Shown: piece by piece, positions 8,554 through 64,000 of the stretch | Layout: each line of letters begins with the position of its first letter | Numbering within the stretch: position 1 is the first letter of the stretch | Origin: Escherichia coli | GTDB lineage: Bacteria; Pseudomonadota; Gammaproteobacteria; Enterobacterales; Enterobacteriaceae | Assembly: GCF_050920415.1 (NCBI RefSeq) | Contig: NZ_CP169309.1 | Strand: one strand, 5' to 3' | Length of the DNA: 64,000 nucleotides | Program-made: the position numbers and the translations under genes | Notes under the pieces: model-generated | Told to the model about the DNA's origin: nothing | Database searches by the model: none | What the model saw: only the letters and a program-made list of their open reading frames with translations

Positions 8554-8629
8554 GCCCGGATAGCTCAGTCGGTAGAGCAGGGGATTGAAAATCCCCGTGT
8601 CCTTGGTTCGATTCCGAGTCCGGGCACCA
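8554..8629 (+). tRNA. pheU: tRNA-Phe (anticodon GAA)
   Basis: Exact match to E. coli tRNA-Phe: GCCCGGATAGCTCAGTCGGTAGAGCAGGGGATTGAAAATCCCCGTGTCCTTGGTTCGATTCCGAGTCCGGGCACCA. Confidence 0.97.
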
Positions 8630-19535: not shown

Positions 19536-21167
19536 ATGAGACATTCATTGCCCTACCGTATGTTACGCAAACGTCCGATGAAATTGAGTACCACTGTGAT
19601 CTTAATGGTCAGCGCGGTACTGTTCTCGGTGCTATTGGTGGTGCATCTGATTTACTTCTCGCAAATCAGTGATATGACGCGAGACGGGCTAGCCAACAAG
19701 GCACTGGCAGTGGCGCGTACTCTCGCCGACTCGCCGGAAATCCGTCAGGGCTTGCAGAAAAAACCGCAGGAGAGCGGCATCCAGGCCATCGCGGAAGCCG
19801 TGCGCAAACGCAACGATCTGCTGTTTATTGTCGTTACCGATATGCAAAGTCTTCGCTACTCGCATCCTGAAGCCCAGCGTATTGGTCAGCCATTTAAAGG
19901 TGATGACATCCTTAAAGCGCTGAATGGCGAAGAAAATGTCGCTATCAATCGCGGTTTTCTGGCGCAGGCTTTACGCGTATTTACCCCCATCTACGATGAA
20001 AATCATAAACAAATTGGCGTGGTGGCGATCGGCCTTGAGTTAAGTCGCGTGACCCAACAGATCAATGACAGTCGCTGGAGCATCATCTGGTCGGTATTAT
20101 TTGGCATGCTGGTCGGGCTGATTGGCACCTGCATTCTGGTTAAGGTACTGAAAAAAATCCTTTTCGGCCTGGAACCCTACGAAATCTCCACGCTGTTTGA
20201 GCAACGCCAGGCCATGTTGCAGTCTATCAAAGAAGGCGTCGTTGCCGTGGACGATCGCGGCGAGGTCACGCTGATCAACGATGCCGCACAAGAATTGCTG
20301 AATTACCGTAAGTCGCAGGACGATGAGAAACTGTCGACGCTAAGCCACGCGTGGTCACAGGTGGTAGATGTCTCGGAAGTGTTACGCGACGGTACCCCGC
20401 GGCGCGACGAAGAGATTACGATTAAAGACCGGCTATTACTGATCAACACCGTTCCGGTGCGCAGTAATGGCGTTATCATCGGTGCCATTTCAACCTTCAG
20501 GGACAAAACTGAAGTACGTAAACTGATGCAGCGACTCGACGGTCTGGTCAACTATGCTGACGCGCTTCGTGAACGATCCCACGAATTTATGAATAAATTG
20601 CATGTGATTCTCGGATTATTGCATCTGAAGAGTTATAAGCAGTTGGAAGATTACATTCTCAAAACAGCCAATAACTATCAGGAAGAGATTGGCTCTCTGC
20701 TGGGTAAGATCAAATCTCCAGTTATCGCTGGTTTTTTAATCAGCAAGATTAACCGCGCGACCGATTTAGGCCATACGCTGATTTTAAACAGCGAAAGCCA
20801 GTTGCCAGACAGCGGCAGTGAAGACCAGGTCGCGACGCTGATTACCACGCTGGGAAATCTGATAGAAAACGCGCTGGAGGCATTAGGGCCGGAACCCGGT
20901 GGCGAAATTAGCGTAACATTGCACTACCGTCACGGCTGGCTGCACTGTGAAGTTAACGATGATGGACCGGGGATCGCACCCGACAAAATCGATCACATTT
21001 TTGACAAAGGTGTCTCGACAAAAGGAAGCGAGCGAGGCGTCGGTTTAGCACTTGTCAAACAACAGGTAGAAAATCTCGGCGGCAGCATCGCCGTGGAATC
21101 GGAACCCGGGATTTTCACACAATTTTTTGTCCAGATACCCTGGGATGGGGAGAGGTCGAACAGATGA
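19536..21167 (+). CDS. dcuS: C4-dicarboxylate sensor histidine kinase DcuS (543 aa)
   Basis: Two TM segments flanking a periplasmic PAS-like domain, cytoplasmic PAS and HATPase domains; overlaps dcuR start by 4 bp. Confidence 0.93.
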   Translation: MRHSLPYRMLRKRPMKLSTTVILMVSAVLFSVLLVVHLIYFSQISDMTRDGLANKALAVARTLADSPEIRQGLQKKPQESGIQAIAEAVRKRNDLLFIVVTDMQSLRYSHPEAQRIGQPFKGDDILKALNGEENVAINRGFLAQALRVFTPIYDENHKQIGVVAIGLELSRVTQQINDSRWSIIWSVLFGMLVGLIGTCILVKVLKKILFGLEPYEISTLFEQRQAMLQSIKEGVVAVDDRGEVTLINDAAQELLNYRKSQDDEKLSTLSHAWSQVVDVSEVLRDGTPRRDEEITIKDRLLLINTVPVRSNGVIIGAISTFRDKTEVRKLMQRLDGLVNYADALRERSHEFMNKLHVILGLLHLKSYKQLEDYILKTANNYQEEIGSLLGKIKSPVIAGFLISKINRATDLGHTLILNSESQLPDSGSEDQVATLITTLGNLIENALEALGPEPGGEISVTLHYRHGWLHCEVNDDGPGIAPDKIDHIFDKGVSTKGSERGVGLALVKQQVENLGGSIAVESEPGIFTQFFVQIPWDGERSNR

Positions 21168-29027: not shown

Positions 29028-31298
29028 ATGATGAAAGTATTAATTGTTGAAAGCGAGTTTCTCCATCAGGACACCTGGGTCGGTAACGCCGTTGAGCGTC
29101 TGGCAGGGGCTTTAAGCCAGCAAAATGTTACCGTGATTAAATCCACCTCCTTTGATGATGGCTTTGCCATTCTCTCTTCAAACGAAGCCATTGACTGCCT
29201 GATGTTCAGCTATCAAATGGAACATCCGGACGAACATCAAAACGTCAGACAATTGATCGGTAAGCTTCATGAGCGCCAACAAAACGTGCCGGTCTTCCTG
29301 TTGGGCGATCGGGAAAAAGCCCTCGCCGCAATGGACCGAGATCTGCTGGAGCTTGTCGATGAATTCGCCTGGATTCTGGAAGATACCGCCGACTTTATCG
29401 CCGGACGCGCCGTTGCCGCAATGACCCGCTACCGCCAGCAGCTGTTGCCGCCACTGTTCAGCGCGCTGATGAAATATAGCGACATCCATGAATATTCCTG
29501 GGCAGCGCCAGGCCACCAGGGCGGCGTTGGCTTTACCAAAACACCCGCCGGACGTTTCTACCATGACTACTATGGTGAAAATCTGTTCCGCACCGACATG
29601 GGCATCGAACGGACTTCCCTCGGTTCTTTGCTTGACCATACTGGCGCATTTGGCGAAAGCGAAAAATATGCCGCACGCGTATTTGGTGCCGATCGCTCCT
29701 GGTCGGTAGTCGTCGGTACTTCCGGCTCTAACCGTACCATCATGCAGGCTTGCATGACCGATAACGATGTAGTGGTCGTTGACCGTAACTGCCATAAATC
29801 CATCGAACAAGGCTTGATGCTGACAGGCGCGAAACCGGTCTACATGGTGCCAAGCCGCAACCGCTACGGCATTATCGGGCCAATTTATCCGCAGGAAATG
29901 CAACCTGAAACCTTGCAGAAGAAAATCAGTGAAAGCCCGCTGACCAAAGACAAAGTCGGGCAAAAACCGTCTTACTGCGTGGTGACCAACTGCACCTATG
30001 ACGGCGTGTGTTATAACGCTAAAGAAGCGCAGGATCTGCTGGAAAAAACTTCCGATCGTCTGCACTTTGACGAAGCCTGGTACGGCTATGCACGTTTCAA
30101 CCCGATCTATGCCGATCACTATGCCATGCACGGTGAACCTGGCGATCACAACGGTCCTACCGTTTTCGCCACCCACTCAACCCACAAACTGCTGAATGCG
30201 CTGTCACAGGCCTCTTACATTCATGTGCGTGAAGGTCGTGGGGCGATTAACTTCTCCCGCTTTAATCAGGCATACATGATGCATGCCACCACCTCCCCGC
30301 TGTATGCCATCTGTGCATCTAACGACGTGGCGGTGTCGATGATGGACGGCAACAGTGGCCTGTCACTGACCCAGGAAGTGATCGACGAAGCGGTTGATTT
30401 CCGTCAAGCGATGGCACGGCTGTATAAAGAGTTCACCCATGACGGTAGCTGGTTCTTCAAACCGTGGAACAAAGAAGTGGTCACCGATCCACAAACCGGC
30501 AAAACCTACGACTTTGCTGACGCGCCAACCAAACTGCTGACCACCGTTCAGGATTGCTGGGTAATGCATCCGGGCGAAAGCTGGCACGGCTTCAAAGATA
30601 TTCCGGATAACTGGAGTATGCTCGACCCAATTAAAGTCAGCATTCTCGCACCGGGAATGGGTGAAGATGGTGAACTGGAAGAAACCGGTGTTCCGGCGGC
30701 GCTGGTCACAGCCTGGCTTGGTCGCCACGGCATTGTGCCTACCCGTACCACTGACTTCCAAATTATGTTCCTGTTCTCTATGGGCGTGACCCGTGGGAAA
30801 TGGGGAACTCTGGTTAACACCCTTTGCTCCTTCAAACGCCACTATGATGCCAACACACCGCTGGCGCAGGTGATGCCGGAACTTGTTGAACAATATCCTG
30901 ACACTTACGCGAACATGGGGATTCACGATCTGGGTGACACCATGTTTGCCTGGCTGAAAGAAAACAACCCTGGCGCACGGTTGAACGAAGCCTATTCCGG
31001 CCTGCCGGTGGCGGAAATCACCCCGCGTGAAGCGTACAACGCAATTGTCGATAACAATGTCGAACTGGTATCCATTGAAAATCTGCCTGGACGCATCGCG
31101 GCAAACTCAGTTATCCCGTATCCGCCAGGAATCCCGATGCTACTGTCTGGTGAAAACTTCGGCGATAAAAACAGTCCACAGGTAAGTTATTTACGCTCCC
31201 TGCAATCCTGGGACCATCATTTCCCTGGATTTGAACACGAAACTGAAGGGACTGAAATTATTGACGGTATTTACCACGTCATGTGTGTGAAAGCGTAA
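29028..31298 (+). CDS. adiA: Biodegradative (acid-inducible) arginine decarboxylase AdiA (~756 aa)
   Basis: Paralogue of cadA in this window (shared fold, STHKLL PLP motif); MMKVLIVESEFLHQDTWVGNAVERLA...; linked to adiY-adiC. Confidence 0.95.
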   Translation: MMKVLIVESEFLHQDTWVGNAVERLAGALSQQNVTVIKSTSFDDGFAILSSNEAIDCLMFSYQMEHPDEHQNVRQLIGKLHERQQNVPVFLLGDREKALAAMDRDLLELVDEFAWILEDTADFIAGRAVAAMTRYRQQLLPPLFSALMKYSDIHEYSWAAPGHQGGVGFTKTPAGRFYHDYYGENLFRTDMGIERTSLGSLLDHTGAFGESEKYAARVFGADRSWSVVVGTSGSNRTIMQACMTDNDVVVVDRNCHKSIEQGLMLTGAKPVYMVPSRNRYGIIGPIYPQEMQPETLQKKISESPLTKDKVGQKPSYCVVTNCTYDGVCYNAKEAQDLLEKTSDRLHFDEAWYGYARFNPIYADHYAMHGEPGDHNGPTVFATHSTHKLLNALSQASYIHVREGRGAINFSRFNQAYMMHATTSPLYAICASNDVAVSMMDGNSGLSLTQEVIDEAVDFRQAMARLYKEFTHDGSWFFKPWNKEVVTDPQTGKTYDFADAPTKLLTTVQDCWVMHPGESWHGFKDIPDNWSMLDPIKVSILAPGMGEDGELEETGVPAALVTAWLGRHGIVPTRTTDFQIMFLFSMGVTRGKWGTLVNTLCSFKRHYDANTPLAQVMPELVEQYPDTYANMGIHDLGDTMFAWLKENNPGARLNEAYSGLPVAEITPREAYNAIVDNNVELVSIENLPGRIAANSVIPYPPGIPMLLSGENFGDKNSPQVSYLRSLQSWDHHFPGFEHETEGTEIIDGIYHVMCVKA

Positions 31299-36278: not shown

Positions 36279-37370
36279 ATGCGTTTTCTGCGCCGACCAA
36301 TATCGCTGCGCCAACGGCTGATATTGACCATTGGGGCCATTTTGTTGGTGTTTGAGTTGATCAGCGTCTTCTGGCTATGGCATGAAAGTACCGAGCAGAT
36401 TCAGCTGTTTGAGCAGGCGCTACGCGACAATCGTAACAACGATCGCCACATCATGCGTGAGATCCGCGAGGCGGTCGCCAGCCTGATTGTCCCTGGCGTC
36501 TTTATGGTCAGCCTGACGCTATTTATCTGCTATCAGGCGGTACGCCGCATCACCCGCCCGCTGGCGGAGCTGCAAAAAGAGCTGGAAGCGCGCACCGCCG
36601 ACAACTTAACGCCCATTGCCATTCACAGCGCCACCCTCGAAATCGAAGCGGTGGTTTCAGCGTTAAACGATCTGGTCAGTCGCCTGACCAACACGCTGGA
36701 TAACGAAAGGTTGTTTACCGCTGACGTCGCGCACGAACTGCGAACGCCACTGGCGGGGGTGCGTTTGCATCTGGAACTGCTGGCGAAAACGCATCACATT
36801 GATGTAGCACCGTTAGTGGCACGACTTGATCAGATGATGGAGAGTGTCTCCCAGCTACTGCAACTGGCGCGTGCCGGACAGTCATTTTCTTCCGGTAATT
36901 ATCAACATGTAAAACTGCTGGAAGATGTCATTCTCCCCTCGTATGACGAACTCAGTACCATGCTCGACCAGCGCCAGCAAACCCTGCTATTGCCAGAGAG
37001 CGCCGCCGACATCATCGTTCAGGGTGATGCAACCCTGCTGCGGATGTTATTGCGAAACCTGGTAGAAAATGCCCATCGTTACAGCCCGCAAGGCAGCAAC
37101 ATTATGATTAAGCTGCAAGACGATGGCGGAGCGGTCATGGCCGTTGAAGATGAAGGACCGGGTATTGATGAGAGTAAATGCGGGGAGTTGAGTAAAGCGT
37201 TTGTACGAATGGACAGCCGTTATGGCGGGATTGGTCTGGGGTTAAGTATTGTCAGCCGCATTACACAGTTGCATCACGGGCAGTTTTTCCTGCAAAACCG
37301 GCAAGAGACTTCCGGCACGCGGGCCTGGGTACGGCTGAAGAAAGATCAGTACGTGGCAAACCAGATATAA
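36279..37370 (+). CDS. basS: Sensor histidine kinase BasS/PmrB (363 aa)
   Basis: HisKA (DVAHELRTPLAG) and HATPase domains; ATG at 36279; ORF track begins three codons earlier (36270). Confidence 0.9.
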   Translation: MRFLRRPISLRQRLILTIGAILLVFELISVFWLWHESTEQIQLFEQALRDNRNNDRHIMREIREAVASLIVPGVFMVSLTLFICYQAVRRITRPLAELQKELEARTADNLTPIAIHSATLEIEAVVSALNDLVSRLTNTLDNERLFTADVAHELRTPLAGVRLHLELLAKTHHIDVAPLVARLDQMMESVSQLLQLARAGQSFSSGNYQHVKLLEDVILPSYDELSTMLDQRQQTLLLPESAADIIVQGDATLLRMLLRNLVENAHRYSPQGSNIMIKLQDDGGAVMAVEDEGPGIDESKCGELSKAFVRMDSRYGGIGLGLSIVSRITQLHHGQFFLQNRQETSGTRAWVRLKKDQYVANQI

Positions 37371-37439
37371 AGAAAGCTGCTGACCACCAGCACGCTGAAC
37401 ACGGTAGTTAAACTTTCATAAACACGGTTTTTCATTGCA

Positions 37440-37465
37440 CTCTCCTCCGTTAACCTGGAGGAGAG
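37440..37465. terminator. Stem-loop between convergent basS and proP
   Basis: Inverted repeat ctcctcc / ggaggag between convergent 3' ends. Confidence 0.45.
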
Positions 37466-37548
37466 TATGCGTGTCAGAGATTAAGTGAACCTTAAGAGTC
37501 AATTGTTGGCCTGATGAGACAGCATCCCATCAGGCAATTCGTTTCAGC

Positions 37549-43187: not shown

Positions 43188-43335
43188 CGGTAGGCCGGAT
43201 AAGGCGCTCGCGCCGCATCCGGCTACGGTGCCGACTGCCTGATGCGACGCTCGCGCGTCTTATCAGGCCTACAAATTCTCGCACCATCCGGCAACGGTGC
43301 CTAATGCGACGCTTACCGAGTCTTATCAGCCCCCG
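43188..43335. repeat. REP / BIME cluster (about three REP units in alternating orientation)
   Basis: Units gtaggccggataaggcgctcgcgccgcatccggc, gcctgatgcgacgctcgcgcgtcttatcaggcctac and a third partial unit match the E. coli REP consensus. Confidence 0.75.
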
Positions 43336-43970: not shown

Positions 43971-44759
43971 ATGCAAACGATTATCCGTGTCGAGAAGCTC
44001 GCCAAAACCTTCAATCAGCATCAGGCGCTGCATGCGGTTGATCTGAACATTCATCACGGTGAAATGGTGGCTCTGCTTGGGCCGTCCGGTTCCGGCAAAT
44101 CCACCCTTTTACGTCATTTAAGCGGTTTGATTACCGGCGATAAATCTGCCGGTAGCCATATCGAGCTGCTGGGCCGCACAGTCCAACGCGAAGGCCGCCT
44201 GGCCCGCGATATCCGCAAAAGCCGCGCCAACACCGGCTACATCTTCCAACAATTCAACCTGGTGAATCGCCTGAGCGTACTGGAGAACGTGCTGATTGGC
44301 GCGCTCGGCAGCACGCCATTCTGGCGCACCTGTTTTAGCTACTTCACCCGCGAGCAGAAACAGCGCGCGTTACAGGCGCTGACCCGCGTTGGCATGGTGC
44401 ACTTTGCCCATCAGCGCGTTTCCACCCTCTCCGGCGGACAGCAGCAGCGTGTGGCGATTGCCCGTGCGCTGATGCAGCAGGCGAAGGTGATTCTGGCCGA
44501 TGAACCCATCGCCTCGCTGGACCCGGAATCGGCGCGCATCGTGATGGACACCCTGCGCGACATTAACCAGAACGACGGCATTACCGTGGTCGTCACGCTG
44601 CATCAGGTGGATTACGCCCTGCGCTACTGCGAACGCATCGTCGCCCTGCGCCAGGGGCACGTCTTCTACGACGGCAGCAGCCAACAGTTTGATAACGAAC
44701 GTTTTGACCATCTCTACCGCAGCATTAACCGCGTCGAAGAGAACGCGAAAGCTGCCTGA
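43971..44759 (+). CDS. phnC: Phosphonate ABC transporter ATP-binding protein PhnC
   Basis: Walker [13 protein letters not shown] signature LSGGQQQR, Walker B ILADEP. Confidence 0.93.
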
Positions 44760-59394: not shown

Positions 59395-61445
59395 TGAGCG
59401 CGCTCAACTCCCTGCCATTACCGGTGGTCAGGCTGCTGGCGTTCTTTCATGAAGAGTTAAGCGAGCGGCGACCAGGCCGCGTGCCGCAGACTATGCAACT
59501 CTGGGTAGGCTGCTTGCTGGTGATTCTGATCTCGATGACTTTTGAGATCCCTTTTGTGGCGTTATCACTGGCAGTGCTGTTTTACGGTATTCAGTCGAAC
59601 GCGTTTTACACCAAATTTGTCGCGATCTTGTTTGTGGTCGCCACGATGCTGGAAATCGCCAGCCTGTTTTTGATCTACAAATGGTCATATGGCGAACCGT
59701 TGATCCGATTGATCATTGCCGGACCGATCCTGATGGGCTGTATGTTTTTGATGCGCACCCATCGGTTGGGGCTGGTTTTTTTCGCCGTCGCCATTGTCGC
59801 CATTTACGGGCAAACATTCCCCGCCATGCTCGACTATCCGGAAGTGGTCGTGCGCTTAACGCTGTGGTGTATCGTTGTCGGCCTCTACCCGACGTTATTG
59901 ATGACGTTAATCGGCGTGCTGTGGTTTCCCAGCCGCGCTATCACGCAGATGCATCAGGTGCTTAATGATCGGCTTGATGATGCCATTAGCCACCTGACGG
60001 ACAGCCTCGCACCGCTACCCGAAACGCGGATTGAAAGAGAGGCGCTGGCGCTGCAAAAACTCAATGTCTTTTGCCTCGCGGACGATGCCAACTGGCGAAC
60101 TCAGAGCGCATGGTGGCAAAGCTGCGTGGCAACGGTAACCTACATTTACTCGACGCTGAATCGCTACGATCCCACCTCTTTTGCTGATTCTCAGGCAATT
60201 ATTGAATTTCGGCAAAAATTAGCCTCAGAAATCAACAAACTGCAGCATGCCATTGCCGAAGGTCAGTGCTGGCAAAGCGACTGGCGGATCACTGAAAGTG
60301 AAGCGATGGCGGCACGGGAATGTAACCTGGAGAATATCTGCCAGACATTGTTGCAACTGGGTCAGATGGACCCGAATACACCGCCAACGCCCGCCGCCAA
60401 ACCGCCATCAATGGTCGCCGATGCTTTTACCAATCCAGACTATATGCGCTACGCGGTAAAAACGCTGCTCGCCTGTTTGATCTGTTACACCTTCTACAGC
60501 GGCGTGGACTGGGAAGGCATTCACACCTGTATGCTGACCTGCGTGATCGTCGCTAACCCCAATGTCGGTTCGTCGTACCAGAAGATGGTGTTGCGTTTTG
60601 GCGGGGCTTTTTGCGGCGCAATTCTGGCGCTGTTATTCACGCTACTGGTCATGCCCTGGCTGGACAATATTGTCGAATTGCTATTTGTGCTGGCACCGAT
60701 TTTCCTGTTGGGCGCATGGATTGCCACCAGCTCTGAACGCTCTTCTTATATCGGCACACAGATGGTGGTCACCTTCGCGCTCGCCACGCTCGAAAACGTT
60801 TTTGGCCCGGTGTACGACCTGGTGGAAATTCGCGATCGCGCCCTGGGTATCATCATTGGTACCGTGGTGTCCGCGGTGATTTACACCTTTGTCTGGCCTG
60901 AAAGTGAAGCGCGCACACTGCCGCAAAAACTGGCTGGCGCGCTGGGTATGTTGAGTAAAGTAATGCGGATCCCACGCCAGCAGGAAGTCACGGCTCTGCG
61001 CACTTATCTGCAAATTCGTATAGGTCTGCATGCGGCGTTTAATGCCTGTGAACAGATGTGCCAACGCGTGGCGCTGGAGCGTCAACTGGACAGCGAAGAA
61101 CGCGCTTTACTGATTGAACGTTCGCAAACGGTTATTCGTCAGGGCCGCGATATTCTTCACGCCTGGGATGCAACCTGGAACTCGGCGCAGGCGCTGGATA
61201 ACGCACTACAGCCGGACAGAGCAGGCCTGTTTGCCGACGCACTGGAGAAATACGCCGCCGGCCTGGCAAGCGCACTCAGCCGTTCTCCTCAAATTACACT
61301 TGAAGAGACACCCGCCTCGCAGGCCATCCTGCCGACCTTATTAAAACAGGAGCAATACGTCTGCCAGCTTTTTGCCCGCTTGCCAGACTGGACTGCCCCG
61401 GCATTAACGCCCGCCACGGAACAGGCACAAGGAGCCACGCAATGA
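59394..61445 (+). CDS. mdtO: Aromatic-acid-exporter-family inner-membrane efflux protein MdtO (683 aa)
   Basis: Two membrane domains separated by soluble regions (FUSC/AaeB-like); start overlaps mdtN stop (TAATG). Confidence 0.88.
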   Translation: MSALNSLPLPVVRLLAFFHEELSERRPGRVPQTMQLWVGCLLVILISMTFEIPFVALSLAVLFYGIQSNAFYTKFVAILFVVATMLEIASLFLIYKWSYGEPLIRLIIAGPILMGCMFLMRTHRLGLVFFAVAIVAIYGQTFPAMLDYPEVVVRLTLWCIVVGLYPTLLMTLIGVLWFPSRAITQMHQVLNDRLDDAISHLTDSLAPLPETRIEREALALQKLNVFCLADDANWRTQSAWWQSCVATVTYIYSTLNRYDPTSFADSQAIIEFRQKLASEINKLQHAIAEGQCWQSDWRITESEAMAARECNLENICQTLLQLGQMDPNTPPTPAAKPPSMVADAFTNPDYMRYAVKTLLACLICYTFYSGVDWEGIHTCMLTCVIVANPNVGSSYQKMVLRFGGAFCGAILALLFTLLVMPWLDNIVELLFVLAPIFLLGAWIATSSERSSYIGTQMVVTFALATLENVFGPVYDLVEIRDRALGIIIGTVVSAVIYTFVWPESEARTLPQKLAGALGMLSKVMRIPRQQEVTALRTYLQIRIGLHAAFNACEQMCQRVALERQLDSEERALLIERSQTVIRQGRDILHAWDATWNSAQALDNALQPDRAGLFADALEKYAAGLASALSRSPQITLEETPASQAILPTLLKQEQYVCQLFARLPDWTAPALTPATEQAQGATQ

Positions 61446-62908
61446 TCAATCGTCAACTTTCACGCCTGCTGTTATGCAGCATTCTCGGCAGCACGACGCT
61501 GATTTCGGGCTGTGCCCTGGTACGTAAGGATTCTGCCCCGCATCAACAGCTCAAACCGGAACAAATCAAACTGGCCGATGATTTTCATCTCGCCAGCTCC
61601 GGCTGGCCACAGGCGCAGTGGTGGAAACAACTCAATGATCCGCAGTTGGATGCGCTGATCCAACGGACGCTAAGTGGTTCACATACCCTCGCCGAAGCGA
61701 AACTGCGGGAAGAAAAAGCGCAGTCGCAGGCGGATTTGTTAGATGCCGGTTCACAATTACAGGTGGCAGCGTTAGGGATGCTAAACCGCCAACGTGTCTC
61801 GACGAACGGCTTTTTAAGCCCTTATGCTATGGATGCGCCAGCACTGGGTATGGACGGGCCGTACTATACGGAAGCCACAGTCGGTTTGTTTGCCGGACTG
61901 GATCTTGATTTGTGGGGTGTGCATCGCTCAGCGGTTGCCGCCGCCATTGGCGCGCATAATGCAGCGCTGGCAGAAACCGCAGCAGTAGAGCTATCGCTGA
62001 CCACGGGCGTAGCGCAGCTTTATTACAGTATGCAGGCCAGCTATCAGATGCTCGATCTGTTAGAACAAACACGCGATGTGATTGATTACGCGGTGAAAGC
62101 GCACCAGAGTAAAGTGGCGCACGGTCTGGAAGCGCAAGTGCCTTTCCACGGCGCGCGGGCACAGATTCTGGCGGTCGATAAACAAATTGCTGCCGTTAAA
62201 GGGCAAATCACCGAAACGCGAGAATCTCTGCGTGCATTGATTGGCGCAGGAGCCAGCGATATGCCGGAGATCAAACCGGTGGCATTACCGCAAGTCCAGA
62301 CCGGCATTCCAGCGACACTCTCTTATGAGTTGCTCGCCAGACGCCCGGATCTGCAAGCCATGCGCTGGTATGTTCAGGCGTCATTAGATCAGGTGGATTC
62401 CGCGCGGGCGCTGTTCTATCCGAGCTTTGATATCAAAGCGTTTTTCGGCCTGGATTCTATCCACCTGGATACCTTATTCAAAAAAACCAGTCGCCAGTTC
62501 AACTTTATCCCAGGTCTGAAATTGCCGCTGTTTGACGGTGGACGGTTGAATGCCAATCTCGAAGGCACTCGCGCCGCCAGCAACATGATGATTGAACGTT
62601 ACAACCAGTCAGTGCTAAATGCGGTGCGCGACGTTGCAGTCAACGGCACGCGTCTGCAAACGCTCAACGACGAGCGGGAGATGCAGGCAGAACGCGTAGA
62701 AGCAACGCGCTTCACCCAGCGCGCTGCCGACGCCGCCTACCAACGCGGCTTAACCAGTCGCTTACAGGCCACCGAAGCCCAGTTGCCGGTGCTTGCCGAA
62801 GAGATGTCATTACTGATGCTGGACAGCCGCCGGGTGATCCAAAGCATTCAGTTGATGAAATCGCTGGGTGGCGGGTATCAGGCGGCTCCCGTCGTCGAGA
62901 AAAAATAA
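61442..62908 (+). CDS. mdtP: Outer-membrane efflux factor MdtP (TolC-like, 488 aa)
   Basis: Lipoprotein signal (LISGCAL) plus OEP repeats; overlaps mdtO stop by 4 bp. Confidence 0.88.
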   Translation: MINRQLSRLLLCSILGSTTLISGCALVRKDSAPHQQLKPEQIKLADDFHLASSGWPQAQWWKQLNDPQLDALIQRTLSGSHTLAEAKLREEKAQSQADLLDAGSQLQVAALGMLNRQRVSTNGFLSPYAMDAPALGMDGPYYTEATVGLFAGLDLDLWGVHRSAVAAAIGAHNAALAETAAVELSLTTGVAQLYYSMQASYQMLDLLEQTRDVIDYAVKAHQSKVAHGLEAQVPFHGARAQILAVDKQIAAVKGQITETRESLRALIGAGASDMPEIKPVALPQVQTGIPATLSYELLARRPDLQAMRWYVQASLDQVDSARALFYPSFDIKAFFGLDSIHLDTLFKKTSRQFNFIPGLKLPLFDGGRLNANLEGTRAASNMMIERYNQSVLNAVRDVAVNGTRLQTLNDEREMQAERVEATRFTQRAADAAYQRGLTSRLQATEAQLPVLAEEMSLLMLDSRRVIQSIQLMKSLGGGYQAAPVVEKK

Positions 62909-63037
62909 AATGTCAGCCGCGTGATGGCTGTCACGCGGTATTTCGTTTCGTCACGTCAAAACTGACGACAGCCTGTTTTTCGTCAGAGTTTTGAATAAAT
63001 AGTGCCCGTAATATCAGGGAATGCCCCCAAATAAAAT

Positions 63038-63054
63038 GTGGCATAAAAGATGCA
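63038..63054 (+). promoter_or_regulatory. Sigma54-type promoter upstream of fdhF
   Basis: TGGCAT-N5-ATGCA with GG and GC spaced as in the -24/-12 sigma54 consensus, about 55 bp upstream of the fdhF ATG. Confidence 0.55.
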
Positions 63055-63105
63055 TACTGTAGTCGAGAGCGCGTATGCGTGATTTGATTAACTGGAGCGA
63101 GACCG

Positions 63106-64000
63106 ATGAAAAAAGTCGTCACGGTTTGCCCCTATTGCGCATCAGGTTGCAAAATCAACCTGGTCGTCGATAACGGCAAAATCGTCCGGGCGGAGGCAGC
63201 GCAGGGGAAAACCAACCAGGGTACCCTGTGTCTGAAGGGTTATTATGGCTGGGACTTCATTAACGATACCCAGATCCTGACCCCGCGCCTGAAAACCCCC
63301 ATGATCCGTCGCCAGCGTGGCGGCAAACTCGAACCTGTTTCCTGGGATGAGGCACTGAATTACGTTGCCGAGCGCCTGAGCGCCATCAAAGAGAAGTACG
63401 GTCCGGATGCCATCCAGACGACCGGCTCCTCGCGTGGTACGGGTAACGAAACCAACTATGTAATGCAAAAATTTGCGCGCGCCGTTATTGGTACCAATAA
63501 CGTTGACTGCTGCGCTCGTGTCTGACACGGCCCATCGGTTGCAGGTCTGCACCAATCGGTCGGTAATGGCGCAATGAGCAATGCTATTAACGAAATTGAT
63601 AATACCGATTTAGTGTTCGTTTTCGGGTACAACCCGGCGGATTCCCACCCTATCGTGGCGAATCACGTAATTAACGCTAAACGTAACGGGGCGAAAATTA
63701 TCGTCTGCGATCCGCGCAAAATTGAAACCGCGCGCATTGCTGACATGCACATTGCACTGAAAAACGGCTCGAATATCGCGCTGTTGAATGCGATGGGCCA
63801 TGTCATTATTGAAGAAAATCTGTACGACAAAGCGTTCGTCGCTTCCCGTACAGAAGGCTTTGAAGAGTATCGTAAAATCGTTGAAGGCTACACGCCGGAG
63901 TCGGTTGAAGATATCACCGGCGTTAGCGCCAGTGAGATTCGTCAGGCAGCGCGGATGTATGCCCAGGCGGAAAGCGCAGCCATTCTGTGGGGCATGGGTG
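63106..64000 (+). CDS. fdhF: Formate dehydrogenase H selenoprotein FdhF, 5' portion (truncated by window end); codon 140 is an in-frame TGA read as selenocysteine
   Basis: MKKVVTVCPYCASGCKINLVVDNGKIVRAEAAQGKTNQGTLCLKGYYGWDF... molybdopterin oxidoreductase N-terminus; frame continues unbroken after TGA at 63523-63525 to the window end (HGPSVAGLHQSVGNGAMSNAINEIDNTDLVFVFGYNPADSHPIV...). Confidence 0.93.
63526..63570 (+). other. SECIS stem-loop directing selenocysteine insertion at the fdhF UGA
   Basis: Immediately 3' of the TGA: cacggcccatcggttgcaggtctgcaccaatcggtcggtaatggc, matching the recalled fdhF SECIS hairpin. Confidence 0.8.

Follow-up and report, generated by a model that had tools for sequence, protein, structure and literature searches.

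The fdhF control region of an Escherichia coli chromosome: a sigma-54 promoter and its formate-responsive upstream enhancer

The 197-bp gap between mdtP and fdhF, close to the end of the 64-kb stretch of Escherichia coli DNA analysed here (the window), almost certainly carries the native chromosomal control region of fdhF, that is, the known sigma-54 promoter together with its formate-responsive enhancer. A region of this kind accounts for the expression of fdhF only when formate builds up in fermentation, which has been known since the late 1980s; as it is the same as the long-studied K-12 version, it is real but ordinary. Neither the promoter nor the upstream activating sequence (UAS) is new, and beyond correct annotation the significance of the region is small; a distal half-site, a conserved element in the spacer, and a quantised distance between enhancer and promoter may, at most, be mildly new points. 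The features are collected in Table 1.

Table 1. Features of the mdtP-fdhF intergenic region and its borders (window coordinates; a point in the strand column marks elements without orientation)
Feature	Coordinates	Strand	Basis or remark
mdtP intrinsic terminator	62916-62949	+	Terminator scan; stem-loop 62916-62939, then tail ATTTCGTTTC
Distal GTCACG half-site (probable outer part of enhancer)	62930-62935	.	About -135 from predicted start; direct repeat with GTCACG at 62950
Enhancer (UAS) core	62946-62969	.	Conservation; TTTCGTCA, then palindrome CGTCAAAACTGACG (62954-62967), then AC
Promoter-proximal half-site TTTTTCGTCAG	62976-62986	.	Conserved as ttTTCGTCAg
Conserved spacer element CCGTAATATCAG	63006-63017	.	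Promoter-anchored conservation profile
Sigma-54 (-24/-12) promoter TGGCATAAAAGATGCA (TGGCAT-AAAAG-ATGCA)	63039-63054	+	Motif, K-12 identity, conservation
Predicted transcription start (63065) and 41-nt leader	63065-63105	+	Shine-Dalgarno GGAG at 63094-63097
Reverse open reading frame, 63 codons, GTG start; not a gene	62931-63122	-	Unannotated, frame broken in relatives
fdhF coding sequence, 5' part, runs off the window	63106-64000	+	RefSeq annotation of identical DNA

The fdhF Locus and Its Identity to K-12

On the plus strand the window closes with the gene order mdtN-mdtO-mdtP followed by fdhF; the stop codon of mdtP ends at 62908, and in the RefSeq records with identical DNA no gene is annotated in the gap between mdtP and fdhF. 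The latter encodes the selenoprotein formate dehydrogenase H, which belongs to the formate hydrogenlyase complex, and the fdhF open reading frame halts at an in-frame TGA (63523-63525), the codon of selenocysteine 140, at which a SECIS element (Rfam SECIS_2, 87.1 bits) is found at 63518-63572. A TGA at codon 140 is present in all 80 species loci that were fetched. The gene for FhlA lies outside the window; in K-12 it is located about 1.4 Mb away, beside hyp. Matches to Rfam at gathering level elsewhere in the window are the sRNA STnc630 (37339-37504, minus strand), naRNA4 (CssrE; 43193-43269, plus strand), and a tRNA (8554-8626, plus strand).

Of 5426 complete E. coli genomes, 5419 contain a match to a 251-bp query that covers the mdtP-fdhF intergenic region, in every case flanked by mdtP and fdhF, and one of the matching strains was 100% identical across it. 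Five of the 251 positions differ from K-12, in which the flanking genes are the same; three are located in the 3' end of mdtP or the flank of its terminator and two in the spacer that separates the enhancer from the promoter (63024, C for A; 63030, A for C). Repeat block, promoter, and leader are base-for-base those of K-12, and no difference falls into any conserved motif. Almost all of the differences in the intergenic allele of another E. coli strain, 14EC007, recur in E. albertii, a pattern suggestive either of recombination or of a divergent lineage that carries the label E. coli.

The Sigma-54 Promoter

A -24/-12 element of the form TGGCAT-N5-ATGCA, which the first-pass annotation had put some 55 bp upstream of fdhF, is indeed present in the intergenic DNA on the same strand as the gene, the exact distance between the end of the motif and the fdhF ATG being 51 nt. 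The invariant dinucleotides of TGGCAC-N5-TTGCW are found as GG at 63040-63041 and GC at 63052-63053, 10 nt apart. By motif alone the site is not significant; TGGCACNNNNNTTGCA, when up to two mismatches are allowed, matches 19 times in the window where 27 matches would be expected. A scan with a sigma-54 position weight matrix (PWM), which had been proposed as a check, was carried out with 28 Salmonella ChIP-chip sites as the training set, from which fdhF had been left out (training range 15.4-23.5 bits); the fdhF promoter is the best match in the window, at 16.85 bits and thus inside the training range, but this score was also reached in 7 of 30 random 64-kb sequences. With a matrix derived from 186 promoters, the fdhF promoter is third in the window. 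As the sigma-54 and the FhlA motif (see below) both lack significance in 64 kb, consensus and matrix scans were dropped as stand-alone evidence, and the call rests on context, conservation, and published experiments.

Other sigma-54-like matches in the window score 13-15 bits and are located at 30271-30288, 44214-44229, and 61351-61366 on the minus strand and at 61948-61963 on the plus strand. They are intragenic or antisense (the first lies within an open reading frame of 756 amino acids, the third is antisense to mdtO, and the fourth is inside mdtP) and were rejected as promoter candidates; since the ChIP-seq tables in the main text of Bonocora et al. list none of them, they are probably chance matches.

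The experimental evidence concerns the very same sequence. The 17-mer GTGGCATAAAAGATGCA of the window is identical to OS41, a K-12 site in the sigma-54 ChIP-seq map of Bonocora et al. 2015, listed with a fold-above-threshold (FAT) value of 41 and marked as an experimentally confirmed promoter in EcoCyc (PMC4591121), and a peak of in vitro binding by RpoN holoenzyme (gSELEX) has been reported in the fdhF/mdtP spacer. Further, a promoter of the form TGG[CT]A[TCA]-N5-[ACT]TGCA, mostly TGGCAT-N5-[AC]TGCAT, is kept in 77 of the 80 species at 35-68 nt from the ATG. With the occupied K-12 sequence, the gSELEX peak, and conservation across species in agreement, the earlier assignment of the -24/-12 element as the promoter of fdhF is upheld.

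The transcription start was predicted by the rule of Bonocora et al. (PMC4591121), which places it 19 bp downstream of the motif centre; the base obtained in this way, 63065, lies at the same distance from fdhF (41 bp) as the start predicted for OS41 in that study. The leader is without significant RNA fold (z = 0.05). RNA elements were considered for both the intergenic region and the leader and were rejected, as there was also no Rfam match, even at E = 1.

The Enhancer Block

The repeated TCGTCA/TGACGA half-sites noticed upstream of the promoter, quoted at first as tttcgtcacgtcaaaactgacgacagcctgtttttcgtcag, are found at 62946-62986, 53-93 bp upstream of the promoter motif, with TCGTCA at 62948 and 62980 and TGACGA at 62963. 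The core of this block, approximately -119 to -96 from the predicted start, is the most conserved sequence outside the promoter, with the consensus tTCGaCACGTCAaat.TGaCGA. The heptamer TTTCGTC occurs at 62946 and again at 62978, 32 bp or three helical turns apart, and nowhere else in the window do two TTTCGWC heptamers lie within 40 bp of each other; similarly, CGTCAAAACTGACG is the only occurrence of CGWCA-N4-TGWCG in the 64 kb. The fdhF enhancer is also the only site in the window with at least four CGWCA/TGWCG half-sites per 40 bp; such clusters were seen in 5% of random 64-kb sequences, a figure that is generous because the cluster motif was picked after inspection of the sequence. If the distal half-site is included, the array (62930-62986) reaches from 53 to 109 bp upstream of the -24 element, or roughly from -79 to -135 relative to the predicted start. 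The reading of 62982-62995 as another full palindrome was rejected; the spacing there is wrong (GTCA-N6-TGAA/TGAC) and the right arm is poorly conserved, and the sequence was counted as a half-site only.

Conservation was assessed with fdhF loci from 80 species of the Enterobacteriaceae and their relatives, 77 sequences of which were anchored on the repeat. The enhancer block is conserved in about 76 of the 80 species, and the repeat-anchored consensus reads tTCGaCACGTCAaat.TGaCGA..gcCtg.ttTTCGTCAg, with largely unconserved DNA upstream of it. Within Escherichia the block is invariant and nearby positions vary. Counted from the palindrome, the -24 element is 85 or 86 bp away in 65 species and 76 or 77 bp away in eight, without any values in between; the two classes differ by about one helical turn, and a spacing quantised in this way is the signature of a site that has to keep its rotational position on the DNA with respect to the polymerase. 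In S. enterica subsp. arizonae the block is likewise conserved, with CGACA in place of CGTCA as the first half-site.

In four species (Phytobacter massiliensis, Entomohabitans teleogrylli, Leclercia sp. 29361, and Enterobacter sp. BIGb0383) the enhancer and/or the -24/-12 element has decayed upstream of an fdhF in which the TGA-Sec codon is kept; this may reflect regulatory decay or rewiring.

Probable Recognition by FhlA

According to the secondary literature, FhlA binds upstream of fdhF, which is a member of the FhlA/formate regulon. In Proteus mirabilis, FhlA and RpoN sites are predicted in the fdhF promoter, the activity of which falls in fhlA and in rpoN mutants. Against this background the upstream repeats, identical to those of K-12, conserved with phased spacing, and containing a 14-bp palindrome shared with other upstream regions of the FhlA regulon, are very probably the UAS for FhlA, as had been proposed at the outset. 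The cis element required for the induction of fdhF by formate was reportedly characterised by Birkmann and Bock in 1989; their UAS, which we take to be at approximately -119 to -98, would with 63065 as +1 correspond to 62946-62967, that is, to the first half-site and the palindrome.

A comparison with known FhlA sites, which had also been called for, gave a divided answer. The best local match of a published 13-site FhlA matrix (PMC7658346) falls exactly on the conserved palindrome (62954-62967), with a score of 8.1 bits that ranks only 97th in the window. The FhlA consensus CATTTCGTACGAAATG, taken from Leonhartsberger et al. 2000 as quoted in PMC4987338, agrees with the fdhF sequence in no more than 9 of 16 positions and with the K-12 hyc, hydN, and hyf regions in no more than 9-10 of 16, and the published consensus forms thus fit the fdhF repeats only in part. 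As a contiguous motif CATTTCGTACGAAATG proved unusable, matching no more than 10 of 16 positions in any FhlA-regulon region of K-12; since the fit is this low across the natural K-12 regions, the published consensus forms describe natural sites poorly. The K-12 regions of the FhlA regulon (hyc-hyp, hydN, and hyfA) are better described by CGWCA-N4-TGWCG and TTTCGWC. Over the window as a whole, the FhlA matrix scores highest at 20993-21015, on the overlapping sequences TGTCAAAAATGTGA and TGACAAAGGTGTCT, which resemble a CRP-type site (TGTGA..TCACA) more than an FhlA site.

The weak match of the published FhlA motifs could be taken to mean that the repeats are bound mainly by another regulator, either the paralogue HyfR or an unrelated protein, with the FhlA dependence of fdhF being indirect or mediated by other bases. 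HyfR activates hyf, and a palindrome of the same type is located upstream of hyfA, whose operon encodes HyfR (CGACACGGGTGTCG). However, CGWCA-N4-TGWCG is also present upstream of hydN (CGTCACTAGTGTCG), a promoter of the FhlA regulon which, like that of hyfA, is of the sigma-54 type and FhlA-dependent in K-12; binding of FhlA upstream of fdhF and control of the gene by it are on record, and it is the palindrome, rather than other bases, on which the FhlA matrix finds its best local match. A mainly foreign regulator is, in consequence, very improbable, and FhlA is kept here as the protein that would bind the repeats.

The Distal Half-Site and the mdtP Terminator

Downstream of mdtP the intrinsic terminator forms a stem of 10 pairs, six of them GC, with a predicted folding energy of -18.8 kcal/mol (z = -4.06). 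It belongs to the neighbouring gene and is not part of the fdhF control region, even though the 3' arm of its stem holds the distal half-site. The GTCACG at 62930 precedes its second copy at 62950 by 20 bp and lies two helical turns upstream of the core. In 68 of 77 species the first GWCAC has a GTCA 17-21 bp upstream of it, in the midst of otherwise unconserved sequence; the count for the distal GTCA is 83, as compared to 1-11 for control 4-mers. As this GTCA is so widely conserved and mdtP is located upstream of fdhF in only 13 of 80 species, the half-site is better seen as a control element of fdhF than as a relic of a terminator, and judged from its sequence and conservation it is probably the outer part of the enhancer. 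The control region had been let begin at 62940; the core does lie within that range, but the conserved enhancer would then extend to 62930. In E. coli, one and the same stretch of DNA thus makes up the 3' arm of the terminator stem and the probable enhancer half-site.

The terminator also bears on the question of whether the promoter and enhancer motifs might be chance occurrences and fdhF owe its transcription to read-through from mdtP or to a sigma-70 promoter that has gone unrecognised. Consensus-level matches as good as these do arise by chance in 64 kb; but the strong terminator separates mdtP from fdhF, a search of 62700-63300 found no sigma-70-like promoter, both motifs are kept in about 76 species although most of them have no mdtP upstream (present in 13 of 80), and this exact sequence is occupied by sigma-54 in vivo, as seen in K-12 by ChIP-seq (PMC4591121). 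The probability of such a coincidence is minute, and transcription from the sigma-54 promoter remains the preferred explanation.

The Reverse-Strand Reading Frame

The 63-codon open reading frame on the reverse strand, which overlaps the control region and had been suspected to be spurious, is just that. One could attribute the nucleotide conservation to a 63-amino-acid protein encoded there (62931-63122), the frame with its GTG start being uninterrupted in this strain and in K-12, were it not that it is absent from the RefSeq annotation, carries stops in E. albertii, E. whittamii, Escherichia sp. ESNIH1, Citrobacter, Salmonella, and Kluyvera, is shifted or lost in Klebsiella, Superficieibacter, and Enterobacter, and that the conservation comes in blocks that fit binding motifs and not codon periodicity, with spacer and leader lengths that vary among species by non-multiples of three; a coding function can be dismissed with near certainty.

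The Spacer and a Possibly Larger Enhancer

When the sequences are anchored on the promoter, the spacer shows the consensus ccgtaa..tc.g..aatacCc.caataaaaa. The spacer element at 63006-63017, CCGTAAnnTCnG, is followed by aatacCCacaataaaaa (the two within 63006-63038); the A-rich stretch at 63020-63038 is moderately conserved. Inspected by eye on both strands, the spacer showed no acceptable agreement with the IHF consensus (WATCAANNNNTTR).

The presence of the distal GTCAC in 68 of 77 species, the conserved CCGTAAnnTCnG, and the distance quantised at 85 or 76 bp lead to the idea that the enhancer is longer, and under tighter constraint, than the roughly 22 bp of the textbook element. An FhlA oligomer might then occupy about 55 bp on one face of the DNA, and an accessory or bending factor may bind the spacer. 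This extended arrangement is put forward as a tentative one, which we consider possible but on balance doubtful. In practical terms, the comparison shows more clearly what is constrained, namely the core palindrome, the two flanking copies of TTTCGTCA, the distal GTCAC, the spacer element, and the 85/76-bp phasing; this could guide promoter engineering, for formate-responsive expression or for biohydrogen strains.

A Model for the Activation of fdhF

Occupancy by sigma-54, dependence on FhlA and sigma-54, and induction by formate are documented in the literature for identical or orthologous sequences; what is observed here are the motifs themselves, their occurrence in identical form in K-12, the extent to which they are conserved, and a spacing that is fixed and helically phased. 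Taken together, they are consistent with the following scheme. Sigma-54 RNA polymerase would bind TGGCAT-N5-ATGCA (63039-63054) and form a closed complex unable to start transcription by itself. FhlA, the formate-sensing AAA+ protein, would bind the array of CGWCA/TTTCGWC half-sites some 80-135 bp upstream of the start, presumably contacting the palindrome CGTCAAAACTGACG at 62954-62967 and the TTTCGTCA copies at 62946 and 62978, and probably the distal GTCAC at 62930 as well; the part assigned to this last half-site, like any part of the spacer element, is suggested by conservation. Upon binding of formate, FhlA would oligomerise, hydrolyse ATP, and, by looping of the spacer DNA, reach the polymerase to convert the closed into the open complex. 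Transcription would then begin near 63065, the exact base being a prediction, and yield an fdhF mRNA with a leader of 41 nt.

Comparison with Related Systems

In Salmonella Typhimurium, fdhF (STM4285) has the site TGGCATAAAACATGCATA at the orthologous position, enriched 10-fold by ChIP-chip; the promoter differs in one base of its spacer (C for G). Upon expression of a promiscuous constitutive bEBP, the gene is 29-fold up in the wild type as compared to an rpoN mutant, and FhlA is listed as the bEBP of fdhF.

The hydN-hypF, hyfA, and hycA/hypA regions resemble fdhF in that sigma-54 promoters are preceded by arrays of GWCA/TGWC half-sites; there are, however, differences in the number, orientation, and distance of the half-sites among the enhancers of the FhlA regulon. 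The hyc-hyp intergenic region has a TTTCGWC pair like that of fdhF but is without an exact CGWCA-N4-TGWCG, and the distance between the start of the palindrome and the -24 element, 85 bp in fdhF, is about 75 bp in hydN and about 120 bp in hyfA, as estimated from the sequence in the latter two.

The same general scheme is found with NtrC at glnAp2, NorR at norV, and PspF at pspA, where a closed complex of sigma-54 RNA polymerase is activated by an AAA+ ATPase from multiple sites upstream through looping of the DNA. In contrast to these systems, no recognisable IHF site was seen in the fdhF spacer, and the activator is FhlA, with N-terminal domains of the GAF type and formate as the signal.
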